A stretch of 64,000 bases of DNA from Candidatus Omnitrophota bacterium. Its GTDB lineage: Bacteria > Omnitrophota > Gorgyraeia > 2-01-FULL-45-10. This document shows, piece after piece, positions 10,576-54,551 of the stretch. The notes beneath the pieces were generated by a model that saw only the letters and a program-made list of their open reading frames with translations, was not told where the DNA came from and ran no database searches. The first letter of the stretch is position 1, and the number at the start of each line of letters is the position of its first letter. The translations under genes and the position numbers were made by a program. The DNA is taken from positions 6,878-70,877 of the forward strand of contig JAGOLR010000003.1 of the NCBI GenBank assembly GCA_017993955.1. The letters are read 5' to 3'.

Positions 10576-10578
10576 ATT

Positions 10579-29565: not shown

Positions 29566-30656
29566 ATATACTATTTTGGGTCCCCTATCCCAAAGAGGGG
29601 GCTAGTAACAGATACAGAATAGGGCAGTATCTGCCGTATCTAGATAAGGCTGGAATAAAATATTCCATACGCAGCTTTTGGACATCCGGATCATATGCTG
29701 TGCTCTATAAAGAGGGGCATTATGTAAAGAAAACGTTTTATTTTTTATCCGGGGTGTTATCGCGTATAATGGATATTTTTTTATTACATAGGTACGATCT
29801 GGTTTTTGTTCACAGGGAGGCGGTGCCTATAGGGACCAGTATCTTCGAATCCCTGCTAACCATATTGAGAAAACCTTTCATATTTGATTTTGATGATGCT
29901 ATTTTCCTGCCCAGTTCCAGCCGGTATAATAATTTCATAGAAAAATTGAAAAGACCTGATAAGGTAAAAAAAATCATAAAGATGAGCAGTTGCGTCATCG
30001 CCGGGAATAATTATCTTGCGGAATTTGCCCGTGTCTATAATGATCATGTCAAGGTGATAAATACTCCTATAGATACAGAAAAATACGCTCCTACGGTTAA
30101 CGGGTCTGCGCGGGATGCCGTTATTATTGGATGGATGGGCAGCGCAACAACTTTGGAATTCATCGATATGCTCAAAGGCGTTTTTAAACGGCTGGAAGCA
30201 AGATTTGCCGACAAAGTAACAGTAAAGATAGTCGGAGGGGATGTTCCTAAGGAGGACTTTCCATCTAATGTTGTCAGCAAGCCCTGGGCATTGGATGAAG
30301 AACCCGTTGACCTGACCTCATTCGATATAGGCATAATGCCGATGCCGGACAATGAGTGGACGCGCGGGAAATGTGGTTTTAAGGCGATATTATATATGAG
30401 TTGCGGTATACCATGCGTTTCATCTCCTGTTGGTATAAACAAGGATGTAATTGAGGACGGCGTTAACGGATTTTTAGCTTACAGTGACGATGAATGGTTT
30501 GAAAAACTGTCTTTCCTTATAGAAAATCCTGCAGAACGAAACAGGCTGGGGAAGGCTGCCAGAAAGACTATTGAAGCAAAGTATTCTCTCAAGGTTAACG
30601 CCCCAAAATTTCTAAACGTATTTAAAGATATATCAGTAAGAAAGGCTGCCAAATAA
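29562..30656 (+). CDS. glycosyltransferase family 4
   Basis: GT-B fold with C-terminal 'GFKAILYMSCGIPCVSSPVGINKDVIEDGVNGFL'. Confidence 0.7.
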   Translation: MNILFWVPYPKEGASNRYRIGQYLPYLDKAGIKYSIRSFWTSGSYAVLYKEGHYVKKTFYFLSGVLSRIMDIFLLHRYDLVFVHREAVPIGTSIFESLLTILRKPFIFDFDDAIFLPSSSRYNNFIEKLKRPDKVKKIIKMSSCVIAGNNYLAEFARVYNDHVKVINTPIDTEKYAPTVNGSARDAVIIGWMGSATTLEFIDMLKGVFKRLEARFADKVTVKIVGGDVPKEDFPSNVVSKPWALDEEPVDLTSFDIGIMPMPDNEWTRGKCGFKAILYMSCGIPCVSSPVGINKDVIEDGVNGFLAYSDDEWFEKLSFLIENPAERNRLGKAARKTIEAKYSLKVNAPKFLNVFKDISVRKAAK

Positions 30657-32548
30657 TGTGCGGTATATGCGGCATAATTGACGCAAAAGGCGCTTTTGTA
30701 AGCCAGGAAAAGATACGTTTGATGGCAGATGCAATGGCTCACAGGGGGCCAGATGATAGCGGCTTTTACTTGAGCCCGTCCAGTTCTCCTCGCGCAGGAC
30801 TTGGGCATAGAAGACTTAGTATCATAGATCTGAGTTCTCATGGGCATCAGCCGATGGAAAACGAGGATGGCAGTCTGCGTATAGTTTTAAACGGAGAGAT
30901 CTATAATTACTGCGAATTGCGGTCCGAACTGGAAAGTAAAGGTCATCTTTTCAGGTCACATACAGACACAGAGACTGTTATCCATCTTTATGAGGAATAT
31001 GGGGAAGACTGCGTTAAGTTTATGCGTGGCATGTTCGCATTCGCTATATGGGATGAGAATAAAAAGATATTATTTGCGGCCCGTGACAGAGTGGGGAAAA
31101 AGCCATTTTTGTATTTTAACGGCTCTAACGTTTTTATTTTTGCTTCCGAATTCAAATCCTTGTGCGCGAGCGGAGCTGTAAGCGCGGGGATAAACCCTAT
31201 TTCCCTAAACTACTATATGGCATTAGGGTATGTGCCTTCCCCGATGACCATTTATAAAGATATCCTTAAGTTGCCGCCGGCTCACAGCCTTATATTGAAG
31301 GCTGGGAAGGTGTCGATAAAAAGATATTGGGAGTTGGACTATTCTAAAAAGATAGAAATATCCGAAGAAGATGCCGCATCGGAGGTTATCAGATTGCTTA
31401 GAGAAGCTGTTAATATAAGACTCCGCAGTGATGTGCCGCTCGGCGCCTTTTTAAGTGGAGGTATAGATTCCAGCGCTATAGTGGCGATGATGAGCCGGGA
31501 ATCCGGCTCCAGGATCAAGACATTCTCTATAGGATTCGAAGATAAGGCTTTTAACGAACTATGTTATGCCAGGGCCATAGCAAGCAGATTTTCTACGGAA
31601 CATAACGAATTTATCGTAAAACCTGACGCGCTTAAAATATTGCCTCTTCTTGTGGAGAGATACGGTGAACCTTATGCGGATTCGTCATGTATACCTACAT
31701 ATTACGTATGTAATGAGACAAGAAAGCATGTTACTGTCGCGCTTAACGGTGACGGTGGAGATGAGCTATTTGCAGGATATGATAGGTACCAGGCTATTTG
31801 TGCGTCGGACTTTTACAATAAGTTGCCCCATCCCGCTAAGTTACTGGCCAAGAGTTTCGCCGTAGTGTTGCCGGATTCTACAGACTTCAAGAATCGTTTT
31901 CGAAGGTTAAAAAGGTTTTTTGACGGTATAGAGCTTCCTATAGAGCAACGGTATATGCGGTGGATCAGCATATTTAACAGCGAGATGCGGTCCGTGATAT
32001 ATTCCGAGAGCTTTAAGGATATAGTGGGATCTTCAGACCCATCAGAAGTCATCAGGCCATATCTGGCCACCATAGGAAATCTGGATATCCTTGACGGTGT
32101 TTTATCCGCAGATACACATACTTATTTACTCCACGATCTTCTTGTCAAGGTAGATATAGCGAGCATGTCAAACTCGCTTGAAGCGCGCTCGCCTTTTTTA
32201 GACCACAAGCTTATGGAATTTGCCGCTAAACTTCCGCCTGGCTATAAGATGAAAAACCTGGTTAAAAAATATATATTAAAAAAAGCTCTTAAGGGTATTC
32301 TGCCGGAAAGGAACATATGCCGTAATAAGATGGGGTTCGGCGTTCCTGTGGGCGCATGGTTCAGGGATGAGCTCAAAAATTTTTTAAAAGATATACTCTT
32401 TTCACAAAGTTCTTTATCCAGAGGCTATTTTAAGCCCGATGAGATCAAGAATCTGGTGCTTGAGCATGCTTCGGGTAAAAAAGATCATGCTTTCAGACTC
32501 TGGTCCTTGTTAATGCTTGAATTATGGCATAAGAGGTTCATTGATTAA
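30656..32548 (+). CDS. asparagine synthase (glutamine-hydrolysing)-family amidotransferase (AsnB/WbpS/WbpG-like)
   Basis: N-terminal nucleophile 'MCGICGI' and the 'SGGIDSS' PP-loop. Length is 630 aa. Confidence 0.85.
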   Translation: MCGICGIIDAKGAFVSQEKIRLMADAMAHRGPDDSGFYLSPSSSPRAGLGHRRLSIIDLSSHGHQPMENEDGSLRIVLNGEIYNYCELRSELESKGHLFRSHTDTETVIHLYEEYGEDCVKFMRGMFAFAIWDENKKILFAARDRVGKKPFLYFNGSNVFIFASEFKSLCASGAVSAGINPISLNYYMALGYVPSPMTIYKDILKLPPAHSLILKAGKVSIKRYWELDYSKKIEISEEDAASEVIRLLREAVNIRLRSDVPLGAFLSGGIDSSAIVAMMSRESGSRIKTFSIGFEDKAFNELCYARAIASRFSTEHNEFIVKPDALKILPLLVERYGEPYADSSCIPTYYVCNETRKHVTVALNGDGGDELFAGYDRYQAICASDFYNKLPHPAKLLAKSFAVVLPDSTDFKNRFRRLKRFFDGIELPIEQRYMRWISIFNSEMRSVIYSESFKDIVGSSDPSEVIRPYLATIGNLDILDGVLSADTHTYLLHDLLVKVDIASMSNSLEARSPFLDHKLMEFAAKLPPGYKMKNLVKKYILKKALKGILPERNICRNKMGFGVPVGAWFRDELKNFLKDILFSQSSLSRGYFKPDEIKNLVLEHASGKKDHAFRLWSLLMLELWHKRFID

Positions 32549-33309: not shown

Positions 33310-33804
33310 ATGAATACCAAGCTATTCCAAGCTCAAGACAGATTTATCAGCTATATATGCTCAATATGTGATGATTTCGGGTTTAATAGATTTGTTGCCC
33401 AATTGTACGGAGTACTGTACATGAGTGATAAGCCGCTATCGTTGGATGATATAACTGAAAGACTCGGAGCTTCCAAGGGGAATGTCAGCATAAATATCCG
33501 AGAATTGGAAAAATGGGGCGCCGCAAGAAAAGTCTGGATTAAAGGGTCCCGCAAGGACTATTATGAGGCAGAGCTGGATATAAAGAAGATAATATCCAGT
33601 AAACTAAAAACTTCCATGCAAAGGCGTCTTGCGGGGATGTCATCCATGGTCGATGATGTTATGGATATAGTCAAGGACGATCCCGGAAATTTGAGTGAAG
33701 AAGAAAGGGCTGCCGCAAAATTTGTTGCCGAGAGAATGGATCGGATCCAAGAGCTGAAGAAGTTAGCTTCCACAGCGCTTTCATTGGCAGAAAAGTTTTT
33801 ATAG
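33310..33804 (+). CDS. GbsR/MarR-type winged-helix transcriptional regulator
   Basis: 'LSLDDITERLGASKGNVSINIRELEKWGAARKVW' shows an HTH. It is a small 164-aa protein heading the downstream block. Confidence 0.6.
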   Translation: MNTKLFQAQDRFISYICSICDDFGFNRFVAQLYGVLYMSDKPLSLDDITERLGASKGNVSINIRELEKWGAARKVWIKGSRKDYYEAELDIKKIISSKLKTSMQRRLAGMSSMVDDVMDIVKDDPGNLSEEERAAAKFVAERMDRIQELKKLASTALSLAEKFL

Positions 33805-33812: not shown

Positions 33813-35081
33813 ATGAATATAGATGCGATAATCCCGGCTCGAAAAGGAAGCAAGCGAATATATCATAAAAATACTCTTTTGATAGGTGGCAAACCTCTTA
33901 TCGAGTATACGCTCGAGGCGGCTCTTTCTTCTAAGTCTATACGTTCGACCTATCTTTTTACCGATGATAAAGAACTGATAAGAAAATACAAAACTAATCG
34001 TTCTGTTAATATAATATCCAGACCGGAGAGACTTTCGCAGGACGACACCTCTCTGAAAGATTCCGTTTTGTATGCAATCAAAGCGTTACTAAAAAAATCG
34101 CCCGCGGATATATATGCCATCCTTCCTCCAGTAGCTCCATTTAGGTCTGCGGCTCACGTGGATTCAGTAATTGAATTTGCTGCGTCATTACCGAAGTATG
34201 ACAGTATCGCTAGCGCTGTATCAGACCGGACCTCCGGTGGGTATAGGCTGAATAAAGCAATATGGCTAATTCCTACCAATAAGACAAATCGACTTAACGA
34301 CATGCTCATCTCATCCAGATCACGCATGTACATGATGGACGAATTTGATGGCTTAGCCATTGAGACTCCCTATGATGTTATGATTGCCGAGGCTGTTCTT
34401 GATTTCCAGAAGGAGCGGTTTAGCTGGGATGCGCGAGGCGGATATAATGTGCAGCGCTTTTACGCGCATGACGATGGCCTTATGAATATCAGACGAAACA
34501 TATTCGATGCAGCTGCTTACGAACGCCATTTTGGCCGTTATAAATATTTCCTCCCCCATATAAAGCGTGCCGACGAAGTGTTGGACATCGCGTGCGGCAG
34601 CGGATACGGCAGCGAAATCCTGGCGGGTAAGGCAAGATCGGTTCATGGTGTCGATACCGATGGCACTACGATAGAATATGCCAGGCGTAATTATGCAAAG
34701 CCCAATGTGCGTTTTACAACATCAACTATAGAGGCATTCTCACCTAAGAAACGTTATGATAAGATAATAAGCGTTGAGACGATAGAGCATCTTAAGGATC
34801 CCGCTTCGTATCTGGCCAGAGCTAATGGGTGGCTGAAGCCTGGCGGGACGATGTGGCTTACGTGCCCGTTGTCGGAGCAGGGAATGCAGGAAACAAACAA
34901 TCCTTTTCACATAGTTAATATCACATACGAATCTCTCAAGTCCATGATGGAAAAACATTTCGAAAAAGTAGATTTCTTTGACCTTACCGGTTCGGCTGTA
35001 TTTTTCGTGGATACGCTGAACAATAAAACGCGGTATATCGTTGCGAGAGGGATCGCAGGTAAACGCACTAAGAAGATATAA
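33813..35081 (+). CDS. bifunctional protein: N-terminal acylneuraminate (CMP-nonulosonate) cytidylyltransferase domain fused to a C-terminal class I SAM methyltransferase domain
   Basis: N-terminal 'AIIPARKGSKRIYHKNTLLIGGKPLIEYTLEAA' is NeuA/PseF-like. C-terminal 'VLDIACGSGYGSEILAGKARSVHGVDTD' is methyltransferase motif I. Confidence 0.7.
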   Translation: MNIDAIIPARKGSKRIYHKNTLLIGGKPLIEYTLEAALSSKSIRSTYLFTDDKELIRKYKTNRSVNIISRPERLSQDDTSLKDSVLYAIKALLKKSPADIYAILPPVAPFRSAAHVDSVIEFAASLPKYDSIASAVSDRTSGGYRLNKAIWLIPTNKTNRLNDMLISSRSRMYMMDEFDGLAIETPYDVMIAEAVLDFQKERFSWDARGGYNVQRFYAHDDGLMNIRRNIFDAAAYERHFGRYKYFLPHIKRADEVLDIACGSGYGSEILAGKARSVHGVDTDGTTIEYARRNYAKPNVRFTTSTIEAFSPKKRYDKIISVETIEHLKDPASYLARANGWLKPGGTMWLTCPLSEQGMQETNNPFHIVNITYESLKSMMEKHFEKVDFFDLTGSAVFFVDTLNNKTRYIVARGIAGKRTKKI

Positions 35082-36433
35082 TGAAAAAAATCACAAATAC
35101 TCCAATAGTTACGCCGCATAACGACATGACAATGTCGCTCCCGACAACTGTTCATATCGAGCTTACATCATCGTGCTGTTTTACGTGCCGTCATTGTTAC
35201 AACTTCTGGCGCAAAGGAAAGGCAAAGCCGGTATTTATTTCGCAGGAACAATTGGACAGGATACTGGATGAATTGATCGATACTGGCATAATGCATGTGA
35301 TATTTACCGGAGGCGAGCCGTTATTGAACAACGCCGTTCTCCTGCACGGTATAAAAAAGATGAAGGATGCCGGAGCCAGCGTCACATGTAACTCAACGCT
35401 GGCTGTGGCGAATACGCTTGAGCAAATGAAAAAATTGCATGCTGCAGGCTTGGAGCATATATTGACTTCATTGAATTCGCATAAGCCGGATATTAATGAC
35501 CATCTGGTATCTGTCAAGGGGGCTCACCAGCGCATAGTTGCCGGTATAAAGAATGCTGTTTCTGCCGGTATCAGGATAAGCGTTAATATGATAATATCGA
35601 AGACTAACATAAGCGATATTTATGAAACGGCGAGACTGGCTCATTCGCTGGGCGCCAAAAAATTTTTTGGAACACGCGTGGTTCCCCACATCTCCAAGAA
35701 CGCTAGTGAGCAGAGTGAGTTCATAATATCGGAGAAAGATGCCAGGTTTATACTTGACGAGCTTCTTAGGGTGGAGAAAGACTTTGGTATGCAAGTTGGT
35801 ACATTGATTCCATTCCCCTTCTGTATGATGGTGGAGAAGGAAGAGGATCTCGTAAAATTCGAAAAATTTTATTCTCATGGATGCCCGTCCGGGAACAAAA
35901 TGATATCTCTTAATGCAAATGGCGACGCTCATGCTTGTGTTCATGAAAGCATGAGCTATGGAAATATCCTAGATATCGGCATAAAAGGCGTGTGGGCGAA
36001 TATGAACCCATGGCGATCCGGTGAATATTTTCCGGATGAATGCAAGGCTTGTGTGATGTTCGAACGTTGTAACGGAGGATGCAGGTTATGTGCCTTTGCC
36101 TATAATGGCACCATGAAATCAGCCGATAATCTTCGTAAAGGGTGGAAGTTTGCGATGCCTGTTTCCGAAGATGAATTGGGTGACATGTCGTTGACTGACA
36201 CAAAATGTCTCGTGCCGCAGAATATGCGTTTTAGGAAAGAGGATGGTTTTTATATCGCTGATCGTTTTGGTTCCGAGATATTATGTGTAAAGAACGAAAT
36301 AGCATTGGTGCTGCGGGATTATCAGAAGAAAGGGAAAGCGTTTTTTCCCAAAGAAGCCGGATTAAAAGATCCGGAAACAGTGAGGTCTCTTTTGAAGGAA
36401 AAACTGTTGTTGAAAGAGGACGTTTCGAAATAG
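35081..36433 (+). CDS. radical SAM protein with a C-terminal SPASM/twitch-type Cys-rich domain
   Basis: 'ELTSSCCFTCRHCYN' (CxxxCxxC), later 'TGGEPLL', and C-terminal 'CKACVMFERCNGGCRLC'. Confidence 0.75.
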   Translation: MKKITNTPIVTPHNDMTMSLPTTVHIELTSSCCFTCRHCYNFWRKGKAKPVFISQEQLDRILDELIDTGIMHVIFTGGEPLLNNAVLLHGIKKMKDAGASVTCNSTLAVANTLEQMKKLHAAGLEHILTSLNSHKPDINDHLVSVKGAHQRIVAGIKNAVSAGIRISVNMIISKTNISDIYETARLAHSLGAKKFFGTRVVPHISKNASEQSEFIISEKDARFILDELLRVEKDFGMQVGTLIPFPFCMMVEKEEDLVKFEKFYSHGCPSGNKMISLNANGDAHACVHESMSYGNILDIGIKGVWANMNPWRSGEYFPDECKACVMFERCNGGCRLCAFAYNGTMKSADNLRKGWKFAMPVSEDELGDMSLTDTKCLVPQNMRFRKEDGFYIADRFGSEILCVKNEIALVLRDYQKKGKAFFPKEAGLKDPETVRSLLKEKLLLKEDVSK

Positions 36434-36434: not shown

Positions 36435-37106
36435 ATGACGAAACATTACGCGTTGATACCTGCAAAGGAAGAATCAAGCCGCTGCATAAACAAGAACTGG
36501 CGCAAATTTATCGGGGATCGCTCGCTTGTAGATTTTGCAATAAGTACTGTGCCTTCCGGAATTTTTGAAAAGATCAGCATCTCTACAGATAAGCTAGATT
36601 TTGTGGCGCCAAAAGGTGTTGTGAAGCATCTCAGGCGCAAGTCTATGGCGACCAAGAACTCCTGTGTAAAAGACGTAATCCGCCTGCTTATCGAAGAATA
36701 CGATGTTGCAGATAACGATTATTTGTGGCTTTTGAATCCCACATCCCCATTCAGGGCCAGGGGAGACTACGCGAGCATAACCGGTATTATTAAAACGCAT
36801 AGGCCGGACTCGGTCGTGTCGGCATTAAAGCTGCATCCGTTCATTTGGAAAGACGGCAAACCGTTGTTTGAGACTAAGGGCAAGAGAAAAAATACGGAAG
36901 ATTTCAAGGAAGAATATCTGGTCGAGAACGGCATGTTCTATGTGTTTCGCGCCGGGGCCTTTTGCCGCACGCATTCGTGGTATAGCGGTAAGGTATGTTT
37001 GTATAGGCAGAAAGGCATGTGGCCGTCTGTCGATATAGATACCGAAGAAGATTTTATTGAGGCGCAGGAATTGGCAAAGATGTGGACTGGCAAAAAGAGA
37101 AGGTGA
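36435..37106 (+). CDS. acylneuraminate cytidylyltransferase-family protein (CMP-sugar synthetase)
   Basis: 'ALIPAKEESSRCINKNWRKFIGDRSLVDF'. Length is 223 aa. Confidence 0.65.
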   Translation: MTKHYALIPAKEESSRCINKNWRKFIGDRSLVDFAISTVPSGIFEKISISTDKLDFVAPKGVVKHLRRKSMATKNSCVKDVIRLLIEEYDVADNDYLWLLNPTSPFRARGDYASITGIIKTHRPDSVVSALKLHPFIWKDGKPLFETKGKRKNTEDFKEEYLVENGMFYVFRAGAFCRTHSWYSGKVCLYRQKGMWPSVDIDTEEDFIEAQELAKMWTGKKRR

Positions 37107-37110
37107 AGCC

Positions 37111-37959
37111 ATGTTACGCTTTAAGGACATAGAGGGTATTTACCTGATAGCGGAAATAGGTATTAACCATAACGGTGATCTGGATATCGCCAAGCGGCTT
37201 ATTGATGCAGTATTTGCCTGTTCCTGGAATTGTGCTAAATTCCAGAAACGCGATCCCGATCTTTGCGTTCCGGAAAGGCAGAAGCATGTTGCTAAGGATA
37301 CGCCCTGGGGAAAGATGTCGTATCTTGCGTATAAGAAGAGGATAGAGTTTGGCAAAAAAGAATACGATTATATCGATGAATACAGCAAGTCGAAGCCGCT
37401 CGACTGGACGTCTTCAGTCTGGGATATGAACAGCCTGAAATTCATGCTACAGTATAAGGTGCCTTTCCTGAAAATACCATCTGCAAAGATATCCGACAAA
37501 AAATTGGTAGAAGCGGTTGCTAAGACCGGTATACCGGTTATCGCGTCAACGGGGATGAGTGTCATGAAAGAGGTCGATGATCTCGTGGACATATTGAAGC
37601 GCTACTCGTGCGAATTTGCCCTCATGCATACCAACTCTACTTACCCTACTCCAATAGAAGATATTAACATTCGCTGCATACATACTCTCAAGAAACGTTA
37701 TAACTGCGTTGTCGGATACAGCGGTCATGAGTATAATGTCGAACCCACCGTTTATGCAGCGGTACTGGGTGCAAAGATAATCGAGCGGCACATAACCCTG
37801 AACCACAAGATGTGGGGGACCGACCAGGCTGCTAGCCTCGAAGTGGCTGCTATGGATCTTTTGCGGAAAAGGATTCGCGATATCGATCTGGTGATGGGGG
37901 ATGGCAGGAAGAGAGTCACCCGCGGAGAAGAAGAGATTAGGTTAAAACTGAAGAAATGA
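37111..37959 (+). CDS. N-acetylneuraminate-synthase-family (NeuB/PseI/LegI-like) nonulosonic acid synthase, short form
   Basis: 'IYLIAEIGINHNGDLDIAKRLIDA...CAKFQKR' and 'GYSGHE'. The SAF domain appears truncated. Confidence 0.75.
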   Translation: MLRFKDIEGIYLIAEIGINHNGDLDIAKRLIDAVFACSWNCAKFQKRDPDLCVPERQKHVAKDTPWGKMSYLAYKKRIEFGKKEYDYIDEYSKSKPLDWTSSVWDMNSLKFMLQYKVPFLKIPSAKISDKKLVEAVAKTGIPVIASTGMSVMKEVDDLVDILKRYSCEFALMHTNSTYPTPIEDINIRCIHTLKKRYNCVVGYSGHEYNVEPTVYAAVLGAKIIERHITLNHKMWGTDQAASLEVAAMDLLRKRIRDIDLVMGDGRKRVTRGEEEIRLKLKK

Positions 37960-38639
37960 GTGCAGGGAGGATGAGCAATATGCCCGGACCGGATTTTGAT
38001 AAGCAATTCGAATACGAGAACAATTTCTATCTGACAGCGCCTGTTAATCGAATCAGTAAGTTTGCTACGCATCTTGAGTTATTCAGAAAGGTTTCCGGCG
38101 TTGCGGGCGAGATAGTTGAATGCGGTGTTTTTAAGGGGGTTTCGTTATCCCGGCTGATAAAATTCAGGGCGCTTTTCGAGAATGCATTTAGCAAGAAGAT
38201 CATAGGATTTGATACGTTTGGGGAGTTTCCGGAAGCGCGATACGCTGACGATATAGGGAAAAGGGCCCAGTTTGTCAGGGAGGCCGGCAGTCGCAGCATT
38301 GGCTTGGAGGAATTCATCTCCTTGCTGAAAAAACTCGACCTCTATCAGAACATCGAGCTGATTGAAGGCGATATACTTAAGACGGTCCCGGAGTATACGG
38401 CGAAAAACCCGCATCTTAAGATATCGCTTTTACATATTGATGTTGATCTGCATGAGGCGACTGATGTTTGTCTGAAAGAACTGTATCCGCGCGTCTCAAA
38501 AGGCGGGATAGTGATACTCGATGATTACGGCGCTTTTGCCGGAGCGAACAAGGCCATCGATGACTTCTTCGCAGGCAAAAAAATGAAGATAAATAAGCTG
38601 CCGTATTCGAATGCGATTTCTTTCGTTGATGTGATTTAG
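37956..38639 (+). CDS. TylF/MycF-family sugar O-methyltransferase (class I SAM MTase)
   Basis: 'GEIVECGVFKGVSLSRL', 'LLHIDVDLHEAT' and 'GGIVILDDYG' match macrocin-O-MT family motifs. Confidence 0.7.
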   Translation: MSAGRMSNMPGPDFDKQFEYENNFYLTAPVNRISKFATHLELFRKVSGVAGEIVECGVFKGVSLSRLIKFRALFENAFSKKIIGFDTFGEFPEARYADDIGKRAQFVREAGSRSIGLEEFISLLKKLDLYQNIELIEGDILKTVPEYTAKNPHLKISLLHIDVDLHEATDVCLKELYPRVSKGGIVILDDYGAFAGANKAIDDFFAGKKMKINKLPYSNAISFVDVI

Positions 38640-38660: not shown

Positions 38661-40259
38661 ATGGCAACTATTCTGATGGTTTACTGTAACAGGCTGGTCT
38701 CCGGGGTTCAGTATTCGGGCATAGCCAGTATGTCAGCCTTTGCAAAGAGAGGCGGTCATAAGTACCTGCTTTTTGACGCAGCGGCATATACGAATGAAAA
38801 AAAGGCAGGATCTTACCGGTCATATAAAGATAACAAGTTCCTTATCGACTTGGAATTCAGGCCGATAACGAATGCGGAAGTTATGCCATTCAAAAAGCCG
38901 ATGGCGGAATTATTGGCCGACCTTGAAAGCGAGCTCTTAAAGAGCAAGGTTGACGTGGTCGGTTTCTCTTCTTTTTCGGACGACTGGCCATTCACCCTTT
39001 TTCTTATACGGAAGGTTCGAGCTATGCTTCCGTCGACCCCCATAATTGTCGGAGGAGTGCACGCAACGGTCGCGCCTGATGAGGTTATTAAGCATGAAGA
39101 AGTCACGATGCTTTGCGTCGGAGAGGGTGAAGAAGCGCTTGTCGAGTTGCTAGACTCGATTGATAAAGGCCAGATCGACACGGCCATACAGAATTTGTGG
39201 ATTAAGACTGGTGATGCTGTCATCAAAAATAGTTTGCGGCCCCTCGTAAGGCTGGATGGTAGTTTTCCGAAAGCGGATTGGACGCTTTACAATGACATGC
39301 ACTTCTATTATCCATTTGAGGGCAAGCTGTTTCGCAGGGGCAGTGTCTTTGCAAGCAGGGGTTGTCCTTATTCATGCAGTTATTGCATAAACGATCTTTT
39401 TATGCGGCTCTATGCAGGGGATAAACCGTGCCGTTTTAAAGGAGTATCATATCTTATAGATGAGATATCGCGTTTAAAGGATACGTATGCTTTGGAGTTT
39501 TTGCGCTTCTGGGACGAAACATTCCTGGCAATGCCCCGTACATATCTGTCCGATTTTGAAAAAGAGTATAAAAGAGAGATTGGGCTTCCTTTTACAATAG
39601 AGACCACGGCCACGACGGTAACTGACGAGCGGTCCAGAATACTTGCAGAGATGGGATGTCAGTCAGTTAGTGTTGGCGTCGAGACGTCAAACGAACATTT
39701 GCGGACAGGTCTTCTCGGCAAGAAAGTTAGCAATGCTGCATACGATGAATGCTTTAGGCTGCTCACCAAGTACGGTTTGCGCAAAGTGGCTAATTTCATG
39801 TTCTTTCTCCCTCATCAGACGCTTGATGACATGTGGAATGATGTGCATGCCTGCAAGAAGTGGAAAATAGACCATCCTTCCGCAAGGATATTCTATCCGT
39901 ATCCTGGCACGACACTGAGGGAGTATTGCATGCGAAACGGAATGATAGACACCGCTGCGCTTGGCTGGATTGAAGATGAAGAAGCGATTAAATCGCTCAA
40001 CAACCTGAGTGAAAATTATATAACGTTCCAGGATACGGTCATGAAATGCGACACGCGCCTAAAGAGAGAAGGCAAAAAGATACTCGATAATTTTATACTT
40101 TTTCAGGAGACCGAAGTGCAGTCTCATGCTCGCCTTGTAGAATTATTAGACAGAGATGACTACGATGCAAAAAGCGTTATACGAACTATGGAATGCGATG
40201 TCTACAGAAAGCGTTTTGGCGAGGAGCCAGTATTAAAAAAGAGCCTGGATGCGATATGA
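38661..40259 (+). CDS. B12-binding domain radical SAM protein
   Basis: 'ASRGCPYSCSYCIND' (CxxxCxxC) and an N-terminal B12-binding-like domain. Length is 532 aa. Confidence 0.75.
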   Translation: MATILMVYCNRLVSGVQYSGIASMSAFAKRGGHKYLLFDAAAYTNEKKAGSYRSYKDNKFLIDLEFRPITNAEVMPFKKPMAELLADLESELLKSKVDVVGFSSFSDDWPFTLFLIRKVRAMLPSTPIIVGGVHATVAPDEVIKHEEVTMLCVGEGEEALVELLDSIDKGQIDTAIQNLWIKTGDAVIKNSLRPLVRLDGSFPKADWTLYNDMHFYYPFEGKLFRRGSVFASRGCPYSCSYCINDLFMRLYAGDKPCRFKGVSYLIDEISRLKDTYALEFLRFWDETFLAMPRTYLSDFEKEYKREIGLPFTIETTATTVTDERSRILAEMGCQSVSVGVETSNEHLRTGLLGKKVSNAAYDECFRLLTKYGLRKVANFMFFLPHQTLDDMWNDVHACKKWKIDHPSARIFYPYPGTTLREYCMRNGMIDTAALGWIEDEEAIKSLNNLSENYITFQDTVMKCDTRLKREGKKILDNFILFQETEVQSHARLVELLDRDDYDAKSVIRTMECDVYRKRFGEEPVLKKSLDAI

Positions 40260-41650
40260 AGATACTCCTGATAGTGTATGATAACGATTCCTTCCTTCAT
40301 TGGTTTCCCCTCGGACTTGGCTATATAGCGGCCGTTCTAAAAAGAGAGGGCCATGACGTGGAGATTTATCAGCAGGATGCGCACCATTTCCCTGAATCTC
40401 ATCTCACTGCACATCTTGAAAAGTCCCACTATGATGTAGTCGGAATCGGGGTTATAGCGGGTTATTATCAATACAGAAAAATCCTGAAGATTTCCGAGGC
40501 CATACGGAGGTCGAAAGATAAGCCGTTTTTTATTATAGGCGGCCATGGCCCAACACCCGAGCCGGAATTTTTCCTGAAGAAGACCGGGGCCGATGCGGTC
40601 ATTCTGGGCGAAGGAGAGGAAACGGTAGTGGAATTATGTGATGCGCTGAGTCGTGGGAGATCATGGAAGGATGTCAAGGGTATCGCGTATATCGATAACG
40701 ATACCGGAAAGCGTGTGATGACCGGATCTAGGCCGCTCATTAAGGATCTAGATACTATACCCTATCAGGCATGGGACCTTTTCGATATCGGCTATTACTC
40801 ATTATTCCGATTTCCGAATATAAGTCATAATCAGCGCGGCCTGCCCATAATTACCGGCCGCGGTTGCCCGTATACCTGCAATTTTTGCTATCGAATGGAG
40901 AAAGGCATGCGTCCCCGGACCGCCCAGAGCATAGTTGCTGAGGTTCGGGAATTGATGAAGAGATATGGCGTGACTTATATATCTTTTTGTGATGACCTTT
41001 TTATGGTGTCTGAGGCCAGGACAAAGGATTTGTGCGATGCATTCCTGACTGCCGGGCTTGGCATTAACTGGTATTGTAACGGCAGACTTAATTTTGCGTC
41101 AAAGGAAATACTACAACTGATGAAAAGGGCCGGTTGCGTTTTTGTGAATTATGGCATCGAGGCAATGGATGACCGGATACTGAAAAATATGAACAAAGCG
41201 CTGACTATTGAGCAGATAGTGAGGGGCGTAGAAAATACGCTCGCTGTCGGCATTAGCCCCGGATTAAATATTATATTCGGTAACATAGGTGAAGACAGGG
41301 AAACTCTTAATAAAGGAGTTGCGTTCCTGCTTAAGTACGATGATGCATCCCAGCTCAGGACGATAAGGCCCGTGACGCCGTATCCCGGATCTCCGCTGTA
41401 TTACGATGCGATCGATAAGGGATTGTTGAAGGATTGCGAAGATTTTTATGAAAGAAAGCATATAAATTCCGATCTGCTGACGGTTAATTTTACTGGAATG
41501 AGCGATATTGATTTTCATCAGTCTCTTCTAGAGGCAAACAAGGCATTGCTGGCAAATCATTTTAAGAAGAAGCTGCAAAGGGCTGTAGAGCAGTCAGAAA
41601 GTCTGTATATCAAAAAGAATGCCGCATTTCGCGGTTTTAGGCAGACATGA
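40256..41650 (+). CDS. B12-binding domain radical SAM protein
   Basis: 'TGRGCPYTCNFCYRME' and N-terminal 'KILLIVYDNDSF...GLGYIAAVL'. ATGA overlap with the upstream gene. Confidence 0.75.
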   Translation: MKILLIVYDNDSFLHWFPLGLGYIAAVLKREGHDVEIYQQDAHHFPESHLTAHLEKSHYDVVGIGVIAGYYQYRKILKISEAIRRSKDKPFFIIGGHGPTPEPEFFLKKTGADAVILGEGEETVVELCDALSRGRSWKDVKGIAYIDNDTGKRVMTGSRPLIKDLDTIPYQAWDLFDIGYYSLFRFPNISHNQRGLPIITGRGCPYTCNFCYRMEKGMRPRTAQSIVAEVRELMKRYGVTYISFCDDLFMVSEARTKDLCDAFLTAGLGINWYCNGRLNFASKEILQLMKRAGCVFVNYGIEAMDDRILKNMNKALTIEQIVRGVENTLAVGISPGLNIIFGNIGEDRETLNKGVAFLLKYDDASQLRTIRPVTPYPGSPLYYDAIDKGLLKDCEDFYERKHINSDLLTVNFTGMSDIDFHQSLLEANKALLANHFKKKLQRAVEQSESLYIKKNAAFRGFRQT

Positions 41651-41661: not shown

Positions 41662-43578
41662 ATGGGCCGATCAGGCGGTTCGGAAACAACAAATGTCTGG
41701 GTTCAGAAGATCGGGATAGTGCATATAATCATATTTGCTATGAAGGGTATCTTTTGCAGATATGCCGTATATTATGATGTCCGCGGCATTGACGTAATGA
41801 CAGGTTGGTTTATTGGGTTGCTTAGAAAGTCAGGATTGTGTGGTAATTTTTATCCTGAAAAGTTTCTCCTGGCGGAAAAGGAAGGGGAGGGCTTTGCATC
41901 GGTTCAAAGCATGTTTAAAGACCTGGATAAATCAATCGACAATTTTGTAGCGAAGCACTATGCTGCGGAATCGGACAGGTTAAAAAGGACCATAAAGTCG
42001 TATGTTGCGTATGCGTTGCGAAATAATAGCGCTTTCATGATCGCAGCCGGACGCAAGGCCGATGATACGAAAGGGGGTCGAAACCTGTTTTGTATAAGAA
42101 GGCACCCTCTCAATCACATACTGATTGACTACTATGTGAAAGAGCTAGGTTTGTTGGTAGGGGAGTGCGGCTTGCGGGACGTGATAATGTTTTATCTTAC
42201 CTCGTGTCTGTCTATCTGTTCGTCGGTCCTTTTCGCATGTATACCTGAAAGGACGATCCGCGATGCGGTGAATGTGAAACCGTCGATCTGGGTGGAATAT
42301 GCACCGCTTGATATATTGGATTTCTCTTTTTGGAGCGACTTCGTTGACAGGAGCGATTTTGATATAGTGGCGTATTTTGACCGGCCTGACTATGGTGATA
42401 TGGATAAAATTAAGTCGAAAGTCATATCGCGCGGGTTCAAGTGGGTGCAGTTTAACCATCCCCGATCGGCAAGACTTGGCAAGGTTTGTCTGCGCAGGCT
42501 TTTCAGAGGCTTGCCTTTCAGAGGTTATCGCGGTCTGCCCCTCTGGGCCCACATATTCCGCGTTGAATACCAGCTGACTTTTCTTTTGTATGAGGCTATT
42601 TTTAAGCGCTTTAAGGTTAAAATACTCATTCAGCATCAGGAGGCTGCCTGGAAGCAGAATGTTCAAGCTGCCGCCGTTGAATCGGCCGGGGGTATTATGA
42701 TCGGGTACAACTGGTCTATCTATTATTTCCGGTATCTACCGACGCATACATTTCCGCAGCATGTCTATTTTGTGTGGGGGAATGAGGTAGGCCGTTGTAT
42801 TGAGAAGATTGATAAACCGAAGTGCCTTCTGCCATCCGGGCTATGGATAACGTATGATGCCAAGGATGCACCGGCGGCACTGGAGAGCCTTGATAAAGGG
42901 ATTGCATTCAAGATCGCTATTTTCGACAATTCGACTGGTCAAACAACGGCATATTCGCCGGAAATGCTGCTAAGGTTCTATGTGATGCTTTTACGGTTAC
43001 TTGCGGATCATCGCGATTGGGGTGGCATCATAAAGAGTAAAAGCTACGATACGGCTGTTTTGGGATCATTTGCGGGCGGTGAGGAGGTGGTGGCGCAGAT
43101 GGAAGCGCTTATCGCTTCCAGGCGACTTGTGGTCCTCGATCGTAATTATAGTCCATTAGCCGCGTCATCAAACGCTGATATTTCAGTTTGTTTTGGTTTA
43201 AATACCGCAGGCATTATTTCTGGAATACACGGTCTCAGGTCTATTCATTGGGACTGCGGGGGCATAGTGACGCGTGTGGAGAATGCGGAATATTACAAGG
43301 ATATCGCGTATGTTGCGCTTGAAGATCTTAGCGCGGCGATCCTGAAGGCGGCTGCAGGAGACCGAAGTGTAGGGGATTTTTCAAAATGGCGTCAGCAGTT
43401 TAACTATTTTGACGATTTTCGCGCGGCCGAACGCGTCGGAGATTTTATACAAACGTATATGACCGAGCTCCTTCAGACAGGAGATGTGCACCAATCGTTG
43501 GCTCGATCCGTGCAAAGGTATAATCTGAAGAATAATTATACGAGGTCCAGTGCGGAGGTGGTTTTTGCGAAAGCATGA
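41662..43578 (+). CDS. hypothetical 638-aa protein of unknown function; the C-terminal region is paralogous to the C-terminal domain of the 47458-49629 gene product (candidate CMP-sugar transferase-like domain)
   Basis: There are no recognisable catalytic motifs of the common families. It shares 'A[DH][HR]..' and 'A(A/H)SS(N/T).(D/S)IS' segments with the 47458 gene product. A large antisense ORF within it is considered a shadow ORF. Confidence 0.4.
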   Translation: MGRSGGSETTNVWVQKIGIVHIIIFAMKGIFCRYAVYYDVRGIDVMTGWFIGLLRKSGLCGNFYPEKFLLAEKEGEGFASVQSMFKDLDKSIDNFVAKHYAAESDRLKRTIKSYVAYALRNNSAFMIAAGRKADDTKGGRNLFCIRRHPLNHILIDYYVKELGLLVGECGLRDVIMFYLTSCLSICSSVLFACIPERTIRDAVNVKPSIWVEYAPLDILDFSFWSDFVDRSDFDIVAYFDRPDYGDMDKIKSKVISRGFKWVQFNHPRSARLGKVCLRRLFRGLPFRGYRGLPLWAHIFRVEYQLTFLLYEAIFKRFKVKILIQHQEAAWKQNVQAAAVESAGGIMIGYNWSIYYFRYLPTHTFPQHVYFVWGNEVGRCIEKIDKPKCLLPSGLWITYDAKDAPAALESLDKGIAFKIAIFDNSTGQTTAYSPEMLLRFYVMLLRLLADHRDWGGIIKSKSYDTAVLGSFAGGEEVVAQMEALIASRRLVVLDRNYSPLAASSNADISVCFGLNTAGIISGIHGLRSIHWDCGGIVTRVENAEYYKDIAYVALEDLSAAILKAAAGDRSVGDFSKWRQQFNYFDDFRAAERVGDFIQTYMTELLQTGDVHQSLARSVQRYNLKNNYTRSSAEVVFAKA

Positions 43579-44053
43579 TCGCAAGATCGTTCTGCGGAAT
43601 ATATCTTTGATCGTATACGACTTTGACGGTGTCCTTACGGATAATAAGGTCATTCTCCGCGAAGACGGTATGGAGAGCGTGGTCCTTAACAGGTCAGACG
43701 GTATGGCTATGAGAATGATCATGGATAGAGGGATTGAGCAGATCATAATAACGTCGGAAGTGAACAACATAGCGCTCGCGCGATCAAAAAAGTTGGGGAT
43801 AGCGGCAATGAGCAGGGTGAATGATAAGAAGAGGGCCCTTGTGGAGTATTGCGGTAAGCGCGACGTACCATTGAGCCGGGTTTTGTATATCGGAAATGAT
43901 ATAAATGATCTTGAAGTCATGAAAGCGGTCGGGGTTGCTGCGTGTCCTTCGGATGCGTGCGATGAGATCAGGACGATCGCCGATCTGATCCTGCGTTCGC
44001 GCGGAGGGTGCGGCGTTGTGCGGGAACTATTGAACTCATTACAGGCTTTATAG
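43550..44053 (+). CDS. HAD-IIIA family sugar-phosphate phosphatase (KdsC / nonulosonate-9-phosphate phosphatase-like)
   Basis: 'LIVYDFDGVLTDN' (DxDGV motif) and 'YIGNDINDLEVMKAVGVAACPSDA'. Confidence 0.8.
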   Translation: MRRWFLRKHDRKIVLRNISLIVYDFDGVLTDNKVILREDGMESVVLNRSDGMAMRMIMDRGIEQIIITSEVNNIALARSKKLGIAAMSRVNDKKRALVEYCGKRDVPLSRVLYIGNDINDLEVMKAVGVAACPSDACDEIRTIADLILRSRGGCGVVRELLNSLQAL

Positions 44054-44073
44054 TGAAAGATCGATAAAAGGAG

Positions 44074-44976
44074 ATGCGGTATATGGGAAAGAGGACTGTG
44101 AAGATCGGCACTAAAGTTATCGGCGATGCAATGCCCTGTTATGTGATCGCTGAGATAGGCATTAACCATAACGGATCCTTGGACATAGCAAAAAGGCTCA
44201 TCGATGCCGCCTACGATTCGGGGTGCGATGCGGTCAAGTTTCAAAAACGGACTATCGACATAGTTTATAGTCAGGAGGAGTTGTCCAAACCCCGAGAGAG
44301 CCCGTTCGGCAAAACGAATGGTGACTTGAAGAGGGGGTTGGAATTCGGCGCGAAAGAATATGCTGAGATTGACTCGTATTGTAAGGCCAAAGGCATTGTC
44401 TGGTTTGCCTCGTGCTGGGACGAGAATTCAGTGGACTTCATCAGTCGATTCGAAGTACCGTGTTATAAGGTAGCCTCGGCATCGCTTACCGATGATGCTT
44501 TATTGAAGCATCATCGCGCAAAGGGCAGGCCAATCATCCTTTCGACGGGGATGAGTGACATGAGGATGATCGAGCATGCCCATGATGTCCTGGGAGAGGA
44601 TGATTTGATCATTATGCACTGCACGAGCACCTATCCTTCAAAACCGGAAGAGCTCAATCTTGGCGGCATACGGACGTTGCTGCAAAGATTTAATCTGCCG
44701 ATAGGGTATTCCGGTCATGAGGTTGGCCTATACACGACATTCGCTGCCGTTGTACTTGGCGCATCCGTCGTTGAACGTCACATCACCCTGGACAGGTCAA
44801 TGTGGGGCAGTGACCAGGCCGCTTCCGTTGAACCTCAGGGATTCAAGCGCCTGGTTTCGGATATTCGAACCTGGGAGCAGGCAAAGGGGGATGGCGATAT
44901 TCGGATATATGAAAGCGAAATACCCATTATAAAGAAGTTAAGGCGGGTGGGCGGAGATGTCGGTGTCAAAGCATAG
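44074..44976 (+). CDS. N-acetylneuraminate-synthase-family (NeuB-like) nonulosonic/ulosonic acid synthase, second paralog
   Basis: 'CYVIAEIGINHNGSLDIAKRLIDAAYDSGCDAVKFQKR' and 'GYSGHE'. Confidence 0.75.
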   Translation: MRYMGKRTVKIGTKVIGDAMPCYVIAEIGINHNGSLDIAKRLIDAAYDSGCDAVKFQKRTIDIVYSQEELSKPRESPFGKTNGDLKRGLEFGAKEYAEIDSYCKAKGIVWFASCWDENSVDFISRFEVPCYKVASASLTDDALLKHHRAKGRPIILSTGMSDMRMIEHAHDVLGEDDLIIMHCTSTYPSKPEELNLGGIRTLLQRFNLPIGYSGHEVGLYTTFAAVVLGASVVERHITLDRSMWGSDQAASVEPQGFKRLVSDIRTWEQAKGDGDIRIYESEIPIIKKLRRVGGDVGVKA

Positions 44977-45682
44977 AATAGTCGCGGTGATACCCGCCAG
45001 AGGCGGTTCGAAAGGCATTCCCGGGAAAAATATCATAGATTTTTGCGGAAAGCCTTTAATAGCGTGGTCGATCGAGCAGGCCTTGGGTAGTGCTTTGATT
45101 GAAAGAGTGTATGTCTCTTCAGATGATGCCGAGATATGCAAAATTTCAGAATATTACGGAGCGACAGCCATCAAGCGTCCCGCGAGCCTGGCGACTGCCA
45201 GCGCTTCAACGGAAGGTGCGCTCAGCCATGCGGTGCGATCCGTAGAAGATTCCAGCGGTAAAAGCATAGATGCGGTCGTATTTCTTCAAGCTACATCTCC
45301 CCTGAGGGTTACTATAGATATCAATTCCGCCATCGATCTGTTTGTCTCTAAAAAAGCGGACTCTCTTTTTTCCGGTTCCTTGCTCGATGATTTTTGCGTC
45401 TGGGAGCGTAAAGGCCGCAGGCTGAATAGCCTGACCTATGATTATAAGAACAGAGGTCGTAGGCAGGAGAGGGAGCCGCTTTTTCTTGAGAATGGCTCGA
45501 TCTATATATTTAAACCGTCAGTGATCAGGCGGTATAACAACAGGCTTGGTGGCAGGATTGTTTTTTATCCGATGCCTTTTTGGAAATCTTATGAAATAGA
45601 CAAGTCCGAAGATGTAGAGATTTGTGAGTATTACATGCGCAAGAATATACTCAGGAAGGGAGGGTCATGGTGCAAAGACTAG
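44957..45682 (+). CDS. acylneuraminate cytidylyltransferase (CMP-nonulosonate synthetase, NeuA/LegF/PseF-like)
   Basis: 'IVAVIPARGGSKGIPGKNIIDFCGKPLIAWSIEQA' and 'LQATSPLR'. Confidence 0.8.
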   Translation: MSVSKHRIVAVIPARGGSKGIPGKNIIDFCGKPLIAWSIEQALGSALIERVYVSSDDAEICKISEYYGATAIKRPASLATASASTEGALSHAVRSVEDSSGKSIDAVVFLQATSPLRVTIDINSAIDLFVSKKADSLFSGSLLDDFCVWERKGRRLNSLTYDYKNRGRRQEREPLFLENGSIYIFKPSVIRRYNNRLGGRIVFYPMPFWKSYEIDKSEDVEICEYYMRKNILRKGGSWCKD

Positions 45683-53009: not shown

Positions 53010-53773
53010 CGTTAAAGGCAAGATTGCGGTCCGGTAAGCTTACCATAGGTTCATGGATAACGATAGGAAATTTGTCTGTGGCCGAGATCATGGCTCGCGC
53101 GGGATTCGACTGGCTGGCTATCGACATGGAGCATTCGGCTATAACGCTTGATAAAGCTCAAGAGCTCATCCAGGTCATCGGGCTATGCGGCACTCCGGCG
53201 CTTGTCAGAGTCGGAGAAAATGACCCGGTTGTCATAAAACGGGTCATGGATGCCGGAGCGCAAGGGGTTATTGTCCCAATGATAAATTCTGCCCGGGACG
53301 CTCTGGCGGCGGTGCGCGCGGTCAAGTACCCGCCTATGGGGACGCGTGGCGTAGGCCTTGCGCGGGCGCAGGGATACGGACTGGGTTTTTCGGCCTATGC
53401 CGGATGGGTGAACAGAGGAAGTATCGTGATAGCGCAGATCGAGCATATTACGGCTGTCGATAATCTGGACGAGATCCTGGCTGTTGACGGCATAGACGCG
53501 TTCATCGTTGGGCCGTATGACCTGTCCGCATCGATGGGCATACCGGGAAAATTCGAAGATTTGCGGGTCAAGAACGCCCTTTCCAGGATCATGCGGACGG
53601 CAAAGGTCCATAAAGCGGTCGCTGGATTTCATGTCATACCGCCTAATGCGAAGGAAGTGTTGAAGAAAGTGCGGGAAGGTTACAGATTTGTTGGGTTCAG
53701 TCTTGATACACTCTTTCTGGGAGCGAAGTGCAGAGATGAATTCTCATTATTAAAGGACGGGTTAAAAAGATGA
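53006..53773 (+). CDS. HpcH/HpaI-family class II (pyruvate-dependent) aldolase
   Basis: 'GSWITIGNLSVAEIMARAGFDWLAIDMEHS' and 'VIVPMINSARDA' match the 2-keto-3-deoxy-acid aldolase family. Confidence 0.8.
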   Translation: MTLKARLRSGKLTIGSWITIGNLSVAEIMARAGFDWLAIDMEHSAITLDKAQELIQVIGLCGTPALVRVGENDPVVIKRVMDAGAQGVIVPMINSARDALAAVRAVKYPPMGTRGVGLARAQGYGLGFSAYAGWVNRGSIVIAQIEHITAVDNLDEILAVDGIDAFIVGPYDLSASMGIPGKFEDLRVKNALSRIMRTAKVHKAVAGFHVIPPNAKEVLKKVREGYRFVGFSLDTLFLGAKCRDEFSLLKDGLKR

Positions 53774-54537: not shown

Positions 54538-54551
54538 GAGAGGCGCGTGCT

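Follow-up and report, generated by a model that had tools for sequence, protein, structure and literature searches.

In this study, we have examined a 64,000-nucleotide (nt) stretch of DNA from a Candidatus Omnitrophota bacterium (contig JAGOLR010000003.1, positions 6,878 to 70,877; hereafter, the window), in which a single open reading frame (ORF) of 422 amino acids (aa) joins a NeuA-type cytidylyltransferase (CT)-like domain to a class I S-adenosylmethionine (SAM)-dependent methyltransferase (MT) domain. The fusion architecture is real, conserved, rare, and uncharacterized; it is a variation on known themes, not a new principle of biology. In the reading that we prefer, to which we give about an even chance, the fusion is the MT of a conserved, uncharacterized nonulosonic acid (NulO) pathway found mainly in Omnitrophota; its CT-like domain would act as a binding or tethering module, and a separate cytidylyltransferase, CT2, would carry out the activation of the sugar. 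This reading starts from the architecture, conservation, gene context, motif states, and sister-family contrast described below, from which we infer the substrate, the order of the steps, and the noncatalytic role of the CT-like domain.

We regard it as nearly certain that the fusion is genuine. The identical protein is on record on two contigs (NCBI, Logan, and ENA), the longer of 71.7 kb, and is titled "methyltransferase domain-containing protein" in a Candidatus Omnitrophota metagenome-assembled genome (MAG; record MBP7055351.1). A further 22 full-length homologues (42 to 65% identity, 97 to 100% query coverage, 432 to 461 aa) were found in NCBI MAGs, JGI, ENA, and Logan, in independent assemblies. 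Within this family, the mean pairwise identity was 68% across the junction (residues 207 to 250), compared with 47.5% in the CT domain and 58% in the MT domain. From the 22 full-length homologues and from the junction, which is conserved better than any other part of the protein, it is concluded that the fusion is real and under selection. The preliminary description, which was made from the sequence of the window, had named a frameshift or an assembly artifact as an outcome that would undo its claim and had proposed a search for the same fusion in other genomes; the architecture shared by independent assemblies and the conserved junction rule out such an artifact. The family is nevertheless rare: at a 50% identity threshold, only two full-length clusters out of 1.84 billion representatives belong to it, and, among 185,579 species-representative genomes, it occurs in 4 (two from Omnitrophota, a MAG labelled Nitrospirae, and another labelled Planctomycetia).

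The two-domain architecture given in the preliminary description was upheld, except that the CT domain, which had been drawn to residue 225 or so, ends near residue 200 in the AlphaFold2 model. This model, which was built on the family alignment (mean predicted local distance difference test score [pLDDT], 86.4), has a CT fold to approximately residue 200, a disordered hinge (residues 201 to 206), a linker that is structured in part, and a Rossmann-type MT domain at approximately residues 251 to 415. The Pfam models proposed earlier for confirming the domains, CTP_transf_3 and Methyltransf_11, Methyltransf_23, and Methyltransf_25, all matched above their gathering cut-offs. CTP_transf_3 covered residues 5 to 127 only (profile positions 2 to 118 of 217; E of 3.8e-16; 60 bits against a cut-off of 22.6); the three MT models and Methyltransf_31 covered approximately residues 242 to 359 (E of about 1e-15), and Methyltransf_12 likewise scored above its cut-off. 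In Foldseek comparisons with the PDB, the N-terminal half matched CMP-N-acetylneuraminic acid (CMP-NeuAc), CMP-Kdn, and CMP-pseudaminic acid (CMP-Pse) synthetases (top matches 6ifd, 1eyr, 9t4z, 9ftc, and 1qwj; E values down to 4e-16; TM-scores normalized to the target of about 0.74 to 0.81). The model, these matches, and the Pfam score place the N-terminal domain within the NeuA fold. The C-terminal half matched class I MTs, including PMT, NodS, UbiG-like proteins, and YcgJ. Part of the linker, residues 207 to 232, is missing from matches to stand-alone MTs, which begin at profile position 232 to 243 or thereabouts.

The MT domain retains its SAM-binding features. Both strings quoted in the preliminary description are present, VLDIACGSGYGS at residues 256 to 267 and ETIEHLKDP at residues 322 to 330. 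The first provides the glycine-rich motif I (xLDxGCGxG), in which all family members share G262, G264, and G266; also present are the acidic end of strand 2 (GVDTD; D281 and D283 invariant) and motif IV (ISVETIEHL; E322 and E325 invariant). The model has the alternating strands and helices of a Rossmann-like fold over residues 255 to 414, with pLDDT values mostly above 85. The concern that the C-terminal domain might lack SAM-binding residues is thus not borne out, since motif I, the strand-2 acid, and motif IV are invariant and the model is confident over most of the MT core. The majority of the invariant columns of the family fall within residues 209 to 402. Judged from sequence conservation, the selected, constant function of the fusion is that of an MT. 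Matches to this domain in the PDB and NCBIfam were generic (PMT, UbiG, NodS, and BioC), and those in NCBIfam all lay below the equivalog cut-offs (best, UbiG, 56.5 bits against a cut-off of 102.95); because of this, the acceptor atom cannot be read from the sequence.

The CT domain of the window copy, on the other hand, is probably catalytically impaired. The profile of the fusion family aligns with CMP-NeuAc synthetases over the full CT domain (6ifd, E of 1e-34; 1eyr, E of 9e-26), and the family consensus carries the motifs PARxGSKGxYKKN, STDD, RP..S, PTAPLR, YYRRQDQP..Y.LNGAIW, and SVDIDTPYD. Matches of the window protein itself to Pfam and the PDB stop at residues 125 to 127 or so because of an in-frame 28-aa deletion and the substitutions at A182 and E184. 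The P-loop (PARxGSKGxxxKN, which includes R12, K21, and N22 of the Neisseria meningitidis CMP-NeuAc synthetase [NmCNS]) is retained in the window protein as PARKGSKRIYHKN, and the equivalents of R70 and S80, like the residues on the cytidine side, are also kept. The deletion takes out the dimerization arm and the RRQDQP motif, which are present in most homologues, and with them the equivalents of Arg165 and Gln166, residues that complete the sugar site of the partner subunit. Where the family has V-D-I-D-T at the two-aspartate metal site (DIDT), the window copy reads L-A182-I-E184-T, and the equivalent of Gln104 in the (L)QPTSPLR motif is Pro105; this position is L, F, S, P, or N in 23/23 family members. 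The NCBIfam PseF model (TIGR03584) returned 64.8 bits against an equivalog cut-off of 205.7.

In NmCNS, the R165A and Q166A variants have no or strongly reduced activity, the activity of D209A is below measurement, D211A lowers kcat 15,000-fold, and Q104L, Q104E, and Q104N cut kcat 800- to 20,000-fold (PMC2901514). The window copy is therefore short of three or four determinants that are each individually needed in the N. meningitidis enzyme and, because the pair of metal-binding aspartates and the arm bearing Arg and Gln are lost, it is most likely dead or crippled. In KdsB-type enzymes, the second acidic ligand lies at another position in the sequence (PMC2901514). The nearest relative (P0002) has a serine at the first aspartate position and RYQ instead of RRQ. 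The deletion is clear in the protein alignment, whereas a MAFFT DNA alignment with the locus of the closest homologue (approximately 63% identity) did not resolve the position of the gap. With its P-loop and its counterparts of R70 and S80 in place, the CT-like domain could plausibly have a role in nucleotide binding.

To place the window copy among its relatives, we scored 23 aligned members of the fusion family at six catalytic CT positions. All six were kept in 11 members and at least one was changed in the other 12; six members were severely degenerate, namely, the window protein, P0018, P0019, P0021, P0022, and P0023. The equivalent of Gln104, by contrast, was altered in all 23, including the 11 that were otherwise intact. 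None of the invariant columns of the CT domain is among the scored catalytic positions. In a neighbor-joining tree of the linker and MT region, the severe cases are scattered, a pattern that suggests at least four independent losses. The ratio of CT to MT divergence was 1.39 to 1.42 in pairs that included a degenerate member and 1.12 in intact pairs.

A sister family of approximately 40 clusters (P0270 to P0310) behaves differently. It is represented by another 422-aa protein (locus L096, 2045-3313), the N-terminal half of which is a CT2 orthologue (48% identity, E of 4e-74) and the C-terminal half of which is homologous to the window MT (32% identity, E of 1e-21); its gene is preceded by neuB. 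The two families are colinear (hhalign probability, 100%; E of 3.7e-46; 409 columns). In the two sister contexts examined (L117 and L118), no CT other than the fused one is present, and the gene set is compact: a HAD phosphatase, the CT-MT fusion, a radical SAM enzyme, a SAF-less NeuB, an unknown gene, and a B12-binding radical SAM enzyme. All CT motifs were kept in 20/20 sister proteins, with the CT (49%) and MT (47%) domains conserved alike. Compared by Fisher's test without phylogenetic correction, the two families differed both in members with any change (12/23 versus 0/20; P = 1e-4) and in severely degenerate members (6/23 versus 0/20; P = 0.023); this test and the neighbor-joining tree are indicative only. 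As the sequences read, a fused CT that is the only one seen tolerates no change at its catalytic residues, and a fused CT (CT1) accompanied by an independent CT2 gene can decay. In one of these loci (L117), the compact cluster directly follows exporter genes (ABC2_membrane and ABC_tran/Wzt_C), a hint of a capped glycan that is exported by an ABC transporter.

It is very probable that the fusion belongs to a NulO pathway. The local gene order is that of a transglutaminase-like protein, a regulator, the fusion, a radical SAM enzyme, CT2, NeuB1, a TylF-type MT, two B12-binding radical SAM enzymes, a 638-aa protein, a HAD phosphatase, NeuB2, and CT3 (Table 1). One locus (L007) duplicated the contig of another (L002), and eight other distinct contexts were counted. 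The order fusion, (radical SAM), CT2 was found in 8/8 of them, and NeuB directly followed CT2 in 7/8, the exception being L003, in which it lies approximately 5 kb downstream; a HAD gene, a B12-binding radical SAM gene, and a protein of the 638-aa type were usually present. A metagenome scan seeded with CT2 returned ten orthologous loci, in which the fusion or the radical SAM gene lay upstream wherever there was sufficient upstream DNA, except in L096. It is this conserved order across contexts that supports the involvement of the fusion in NulO synthesis. A literature search on NulOs in Omnitrophota returned nothing relevant.

Within this module, the ATG of the fusion gene lies 8 nt past the TAG of the regulator gene, and its TAA shares one base with the ATG of the radical SAM gene (TAATG), an overlap that marks it as tightly packed within an operon. 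The position of the regulator in the middle of the cluster, conserved in three other distinct loci, suggests that the genes from the fusion to NeuB1 form a separately regulated unit. CT2 is likely the true synthetase of the module. Its orthologues (L001 to L009 and L087 to L095) have an invariant motif set of their own (ALIPAKxxSSRCxNKNW, LLNPTSPFR, KRxNT, ENGMF, and DIDTE), which, with DIDTE included, fits an active synthetase; its P-loop has a KdsB-like S-S-R pattern. It is barely detected by Pfam (E of 6.8e-5) and scores only 54 bits with NCBIfam PseF. CT2 can be seen as a distinct, well-conserved subfamily of the NeuA superfamily and as the constant companion of the fusion and the SAF-less NeuB.

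Table 1. Features of the window, in order of position
Feature	Position	Strand	Basis or remark
MarR/GbsR-like winged-helix regulator	33310..33804	+	58-77% identity in L001-L003; directly upstream of fusion
Fusion ORF, 422 aa	33813..35081	+	ATG start; identical to NCBI MBP7055351.1
NeuA-type cytidylyltransferase-like domain (CT1), residues 1-200	33813..34412	+	Fold retained, catalytic set incomplete
P-loop PARKGSKRIYHKN (equivalents of R12, S15, K16, K21, N22)	33834..33872	+	Retained
In-frame 28-aa deletion site, between G143 and Y144	34239..34244	+	Protein alignment
A182-I-E184 replacing metal-binding D-I-D (NmCNS D209/D211)	34356..34364	+	Alignment
Family-specific linker and MT N-terminal extension (ARGGYNVQRFYAHDD...AAYERHFGRYKYFL), residues 207-250	34431..34562	+	Most conserved segment
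Class I SAM methyltransferase domain	34563..35057	+	Pfam, profile search, AlphaFold2, Foldseek
MT motif I VLDIACGSGYGS	34578-34613	+	Motif match
ETIEHLKDP	34776-34802	+	Motif match
Radical SAM/SPASM-like enzyme	35081..36433	+	62-80% identity in 4/8 other contexts
CT2, divergent 223-aa cytidylyltransferase	36435..37106	+	Downstream of fusion in every context
NeuB1, SAF-less NeuB-family synthase	37057..37959	+	62-87% identity in 7/8 other contexts
TylF-type O-methyltransferase	37956..38639	+	Library match
Two B12-binding radical SAM enzymes	38661..40259, 40193..41650	+	Second in 6/8 other contexts, 57-76% identity
638-aa conserved protein, function not assigned	41662..43578	+	PF27878 'PFTS_polysacc' precomputed for homologues
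HAD phosphatase (Kdn-9-P/KdsC-like), NeuB2, and canonical NeuA-type CT3: second ulosonic-acid module	43550..45682	+	
HpcH/HpaI aldolase	53006..53773		Directly before CT4
CT4, KdsB-like cytidylyltransferase	53770..54537		CTP_transf_3 full-length, E 2.4e-51
Class I MT gene	54486..55490		Overlaps CT4 by ~50 nt

Both NeuB1 and NeuB2 (44074-44976) are proteins of approximately 300 aa without the C-terminal SAF/antifreeze-like domain (profile positions 1 to 276 of 329), and both score under the NeuB and PseI equivalog cut-offs. A NeuB-cupin fusion in L004 matches NeuB1 at 27% only. The HAD phosphatase has its best match, below the cut-off, to Kdn-9-P phosphatase; the position of NeuB2 between this Kdn-9-P/KdsC-like protein and CT3 suggests a route through a phosphorylated intermediate, as in the synthesis of Kdn or animal-type Neu5Ac. 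Proteins of the 638-aa type (600 to 638 aa) are present in almost all related loci at 27 to 57% identity; the window protein had no match in the local Pfam and NCBIfam libraries and no sequence match in the PDB, and a literature search on "PFTS" returned nothing relevant. It is a candidate NulO transferase or polymerase. An AsnB-type amidotransferase gene (30656..32548) lies outside the conserved core.

Taken together, the gene set would be accommodated by a pathway in which NeuB1 forms the ulosonic acid, possibly as a phosphate that is removed by the HAD phosphatase, and CT2 turns it into a CMP-sugar. The class I MT of the fusion would methylate the NulO, on O or N, at or around the step of CMP activation, and the radical SAM, TylF, and B12-binding radical SAM enzymes would add further decorations. 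The CT-like domain may bind the CMP-sugar or nucleotide, or it may act as a tether to CT2 that holds the MT beside the activating enzyme. That the MT acts on a NulO or CMP-NulO is, in our judgment, slightly better than an even proposition; MTs of this type are recurrently fused to, or adjoin, NulO cytidylyltransferases, which argues that they act on the substrate or product of the CT.

Several observations weigh against this proposal. The 11 of 23 family members with every canonical residue examined suggest CT activity in at least some lineages, and, in the window copy, the intact P-loop and a Glu184 that could still bind metal might support residual or altered activity. The P-loop itself is lost in some of the severely degenerate members, which weakens a nucleotide-binding role in those members. 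The neighbor-joining tree has no support values. The relative placement of the two domains in the AlphaFold2 model is uncertain (predicted TM-score, 0.59), and the substrate proposed for the MT comes from context only. NeuA-type enzymes are obligate dimers with swapped arms. The arm deleted from the window copy is their main dimer interface; its loss weakens the case for tethering to CT2 in this copy and counts against a classical dimer interface.

A bolder form of the preferred reading, which we advance only tentatively because we think it more doubtful than not, can be envisioned. The CT-like domain would be a pseudoenzyme, a paralogous NeuA fold with independent losses of catalysis in at least four lineages, that either docks the MT on CT2, in a heterodimer mimicking the obligate NeuA homodimer, or captures the nascent CMP-NulO, so that methylation is channelled at activation; the sister fusion of CT2 and MT would be the single-chain version of this arrangement. 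The product would be a heavily O- or N- and C-methylated NulO that is specific to Omnitrophota and a small number of further uncultured lineages and that may cap the end of an exported glycan.

It is less probable still, and in our view unlikely, that the fusion is a true bifunctional enzyme, the CT domain of which uses CTP to activate the NulO, with methylation of the substrate or product by the attached MT coupled to this reaction. This was the implication drawn in the preliminary description, and the NulO cluster and the recurrence of CT-MT fusions accord with a coupling of methylation to activation; the part of the claim that places both steps in one polypeptide is undercut by the lost catalytic residues and the adjoining CT2. 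The overall fold is preserved together with the P-loop and the counterparts of R70 and S80, the consensus of the family aligns with CMP-NeuAc synthetases across the whole domain, all canonical residues persist in almost half of the members, and the fused CT is the only one near NeuB in the sister family and in the independent fusion P0142, where it must be active. However, the segment with Arg165/Gln166 and the counterpart of Asp209, each needed in NmCNS, are missing from the window copy, its PseF score falls well short of the cut-off, and catalytic residues that are kept in every sister protein are not conserved in the fusion family. Activation by the fusion polypeptide is further made doubtful by the three other CT genes of the window, namely, the well-conserved CT2, which always adjoins the fusion, the canonical CT3, and the KdsB-like CT4.

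We consider it equally unlikely that the MT acts elsewhere, on the assembled glycan (for example, in a terminal capping methylation), on another intermediate, or on a protein, with the CT-like domain serving as a scaffold or for docking to glycan assembly. Outside the family, the nearest matches to the MT core sit in multidomain glycan enzymes with two or three MT domains and GT2, GT4, or Capsule_synth domains, which keeps methylation of an assembled glycan in play. The Wzt_C domain recognizes terminal caps in some O-antigen systems, and one sister locus adjoins an exporter with this domain; in addition, the nucleotide-binding P-loop is gone in those members that are the most degenerate. On the other side, CT-MT fusions recur specifically beside NeuB, the sister family fuses CT2 to a homologous MT, and the window has at least seven other MT-domain genes, which could carry out methylation at the level of the glycan. 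Finally, it is very improbable that the fusion, or at least the window copy, is an artifact (a frameshift or an assembly join) or a decaying pseudogene: the full 28-aa deletion is unique to this copy, which is also the shortest, but its reading frame is continuous, the identical protein has been recovered on two contigs, the architecture and the conserved junction are common to 22 homologues from independent samples, every invariant family residue is retained in the MT half, the gene is closely packed with its neighbors, its stop overlapping the next start, and the AlphaFold2 model is confident through the deletion site.

The CT-like domain has the fold of the characterized NeuA, PseF, and LegF synthetases, such as NmCNS (1EYR), Vibrio cholerae CMAS (6IFD), the Aeromonas caviae CMP-Pse synthetase (9FTB/9FTC), and the CMP-Kdn synthetase PpNeuA (9T4Z), and shares their P-loop, STDD, and RP..S motifs. 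Unlike these enzymes, the window copy has no RRQD dimer arm, has Ala-x-Glu for Asp-x-Asp and Pro for Gln104, and carries a C-terminal MT, which is present in none of the four. Two-domain NeuA enzymes offer a parallel in logic. The NeuA proteins of Escherichia coli K1 and group B Streptococcus combine a CT with an SGNH O-acetylesterase, and vertebrate CMAS combines a CT with a HAD-like C-terminal domain. These enzymes likewise place the CT at the N terminus and a modifying or accessory domain at the C terminus, the order seen in the fusion, and they provide a precedent both for the coupling of activation to modification and for a noncatalytic partner domain. The fusion differs in that its partner is a class I MT and in that the domain seemingly without catalysis is the CT, not the accessory one; it had no Pfam match to an SGNH/GDSL or HAD C-terminal domain, so the likeness is one of logic only.

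MTs have also been described as separate genes next to pseF or in neu loci: PtmH is needed for Leg5AmNMe7Ac in Campylobacter coli, an uncharacterized MT lies upstream of pseF in Clostridium, sam1 lies within the neuraminic acid locus of Geobacillus, and such stand-alone MTs are thought to methylate the NulO before its transfer (PMC13317340, PMC5109656). Like the MT of the fusion, these proteins are encoded within or beside NulO or CT genes, yet they are separate genes and not fusions. Fusion of NeuA to modifying domains is already known, as is the presence of MT genes beside those for CTs. The sister family, which occurs in MAGs named Syntrophus and Phycisphaerales among others, has the same two-domain layout and pathway core as the family of the window; its fused CT is of the CT2 type, whereas the family of the window has CT2 encoded on its own and a fused CT1 that is degenerate to a varying extent. 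In the fosfomycin pathway, the cytidylyltransferase domain of Fom1 makes a CMP conjugate that is used by the B12-binding radical SAM methyltransferase Fom3. By analogy only, CMP serves there as a handle for an MT, and cytidylyltransferase and B12-binding radical SAM genes co-occur; the chemistry is unrelated (a phosphonate, not an ulosonic acid), the CT comes from another family, and the MT is of another type.

The CT-MT architecture is not confined to one family: about 60 database clusters in the two colinear families carry it, as do singletons, and at least three further proteins combine a CT with a class I MT (P0206, 486 aa; P0171, 542 aa; P0142, 579 aa). P0142 comes from an Omnitrophota MAG (L086, JBAZEN010000004.1; gene 10001-11740), contains the only CT in view, and has as neighbors a NeuB-SAF/NeuC-like (2-epimerase) pair, HisF/HisH-like genes, and a B12-binding radical SAM gene. 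In NulO contexts, CT-MT fusions have emerged or been maintained on several occasions, which speaks for a functional connection between the enzyme that activates the sugar and the MT. JGI automatically names such proteins [quoted passage not shown] and a literature search for a described CT-MT fusion found no paper. The earlier statement that canonical pathways hold no equivalent is therefore sound for the characterized neuraminic (Neu), legionaminic (Leg), and Pse pathways, but the architecture is not unique to the window.

The whole 64-kb window is a single-strand island of glycan biosynthesis genes. Its CT4 and the MT gene that overlaps it form an unfused CT-to-MT pair, which includes the fourth CT gene of the window and possibly belongs to a third keto-acid sugar module. 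This MT was considered as an unfused orthologue of the fused MT and was rejected, at an identity of only 24%. B12-binding radical SAM enzymes are unusually dense (at least four; 15618-16997, 38661-41650, and 51471-53009), there are two SPASM-type radical SAM enzymes besides (starts at 35081 and 46613), and, in addition to the fusion, genes with SAM-dependent MT domains start at 11619, 18564, 27149, 37956, 47458, and 54486. The glycan made by the island is probably heavily C- and O- or N-methylated. Three consecutive genes for large PMT_2-like (GT-C type) membrane proteins (20092-24672) coincide with the lowest GC content of the window (0.38) and a strongly negative AT skew (-0.15); the genes are likely to encode polyprenol-dependent glycosyltransferases or polymerases.

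Nonulosonic acids, such as sialic, legionaminic, and pseudaminic acids, are surface sugars that shape the recognition of bacteria by hosts, phages, and predators; methylated derivatives are known, and the enzymes responsible for them are poorly defined. The fusion and its sister family tie one class I methyltransferase to CMP activation in an uncharacterized NulO pathway of uncultured Omnitrophota and a few other uncultured lineages, among them MAGs labelled Nitrospirae and Planctomycetia. They also single out a small set of genes (those for the fusion, CT2, NeuB1, and the HAD phosphatase) with which a new methylated CMP-NulO may be made and identified. In conclusion, the contrast between the two families amounts to a natural experiment on the passage of an enzyme domain to a noncatalytic module.

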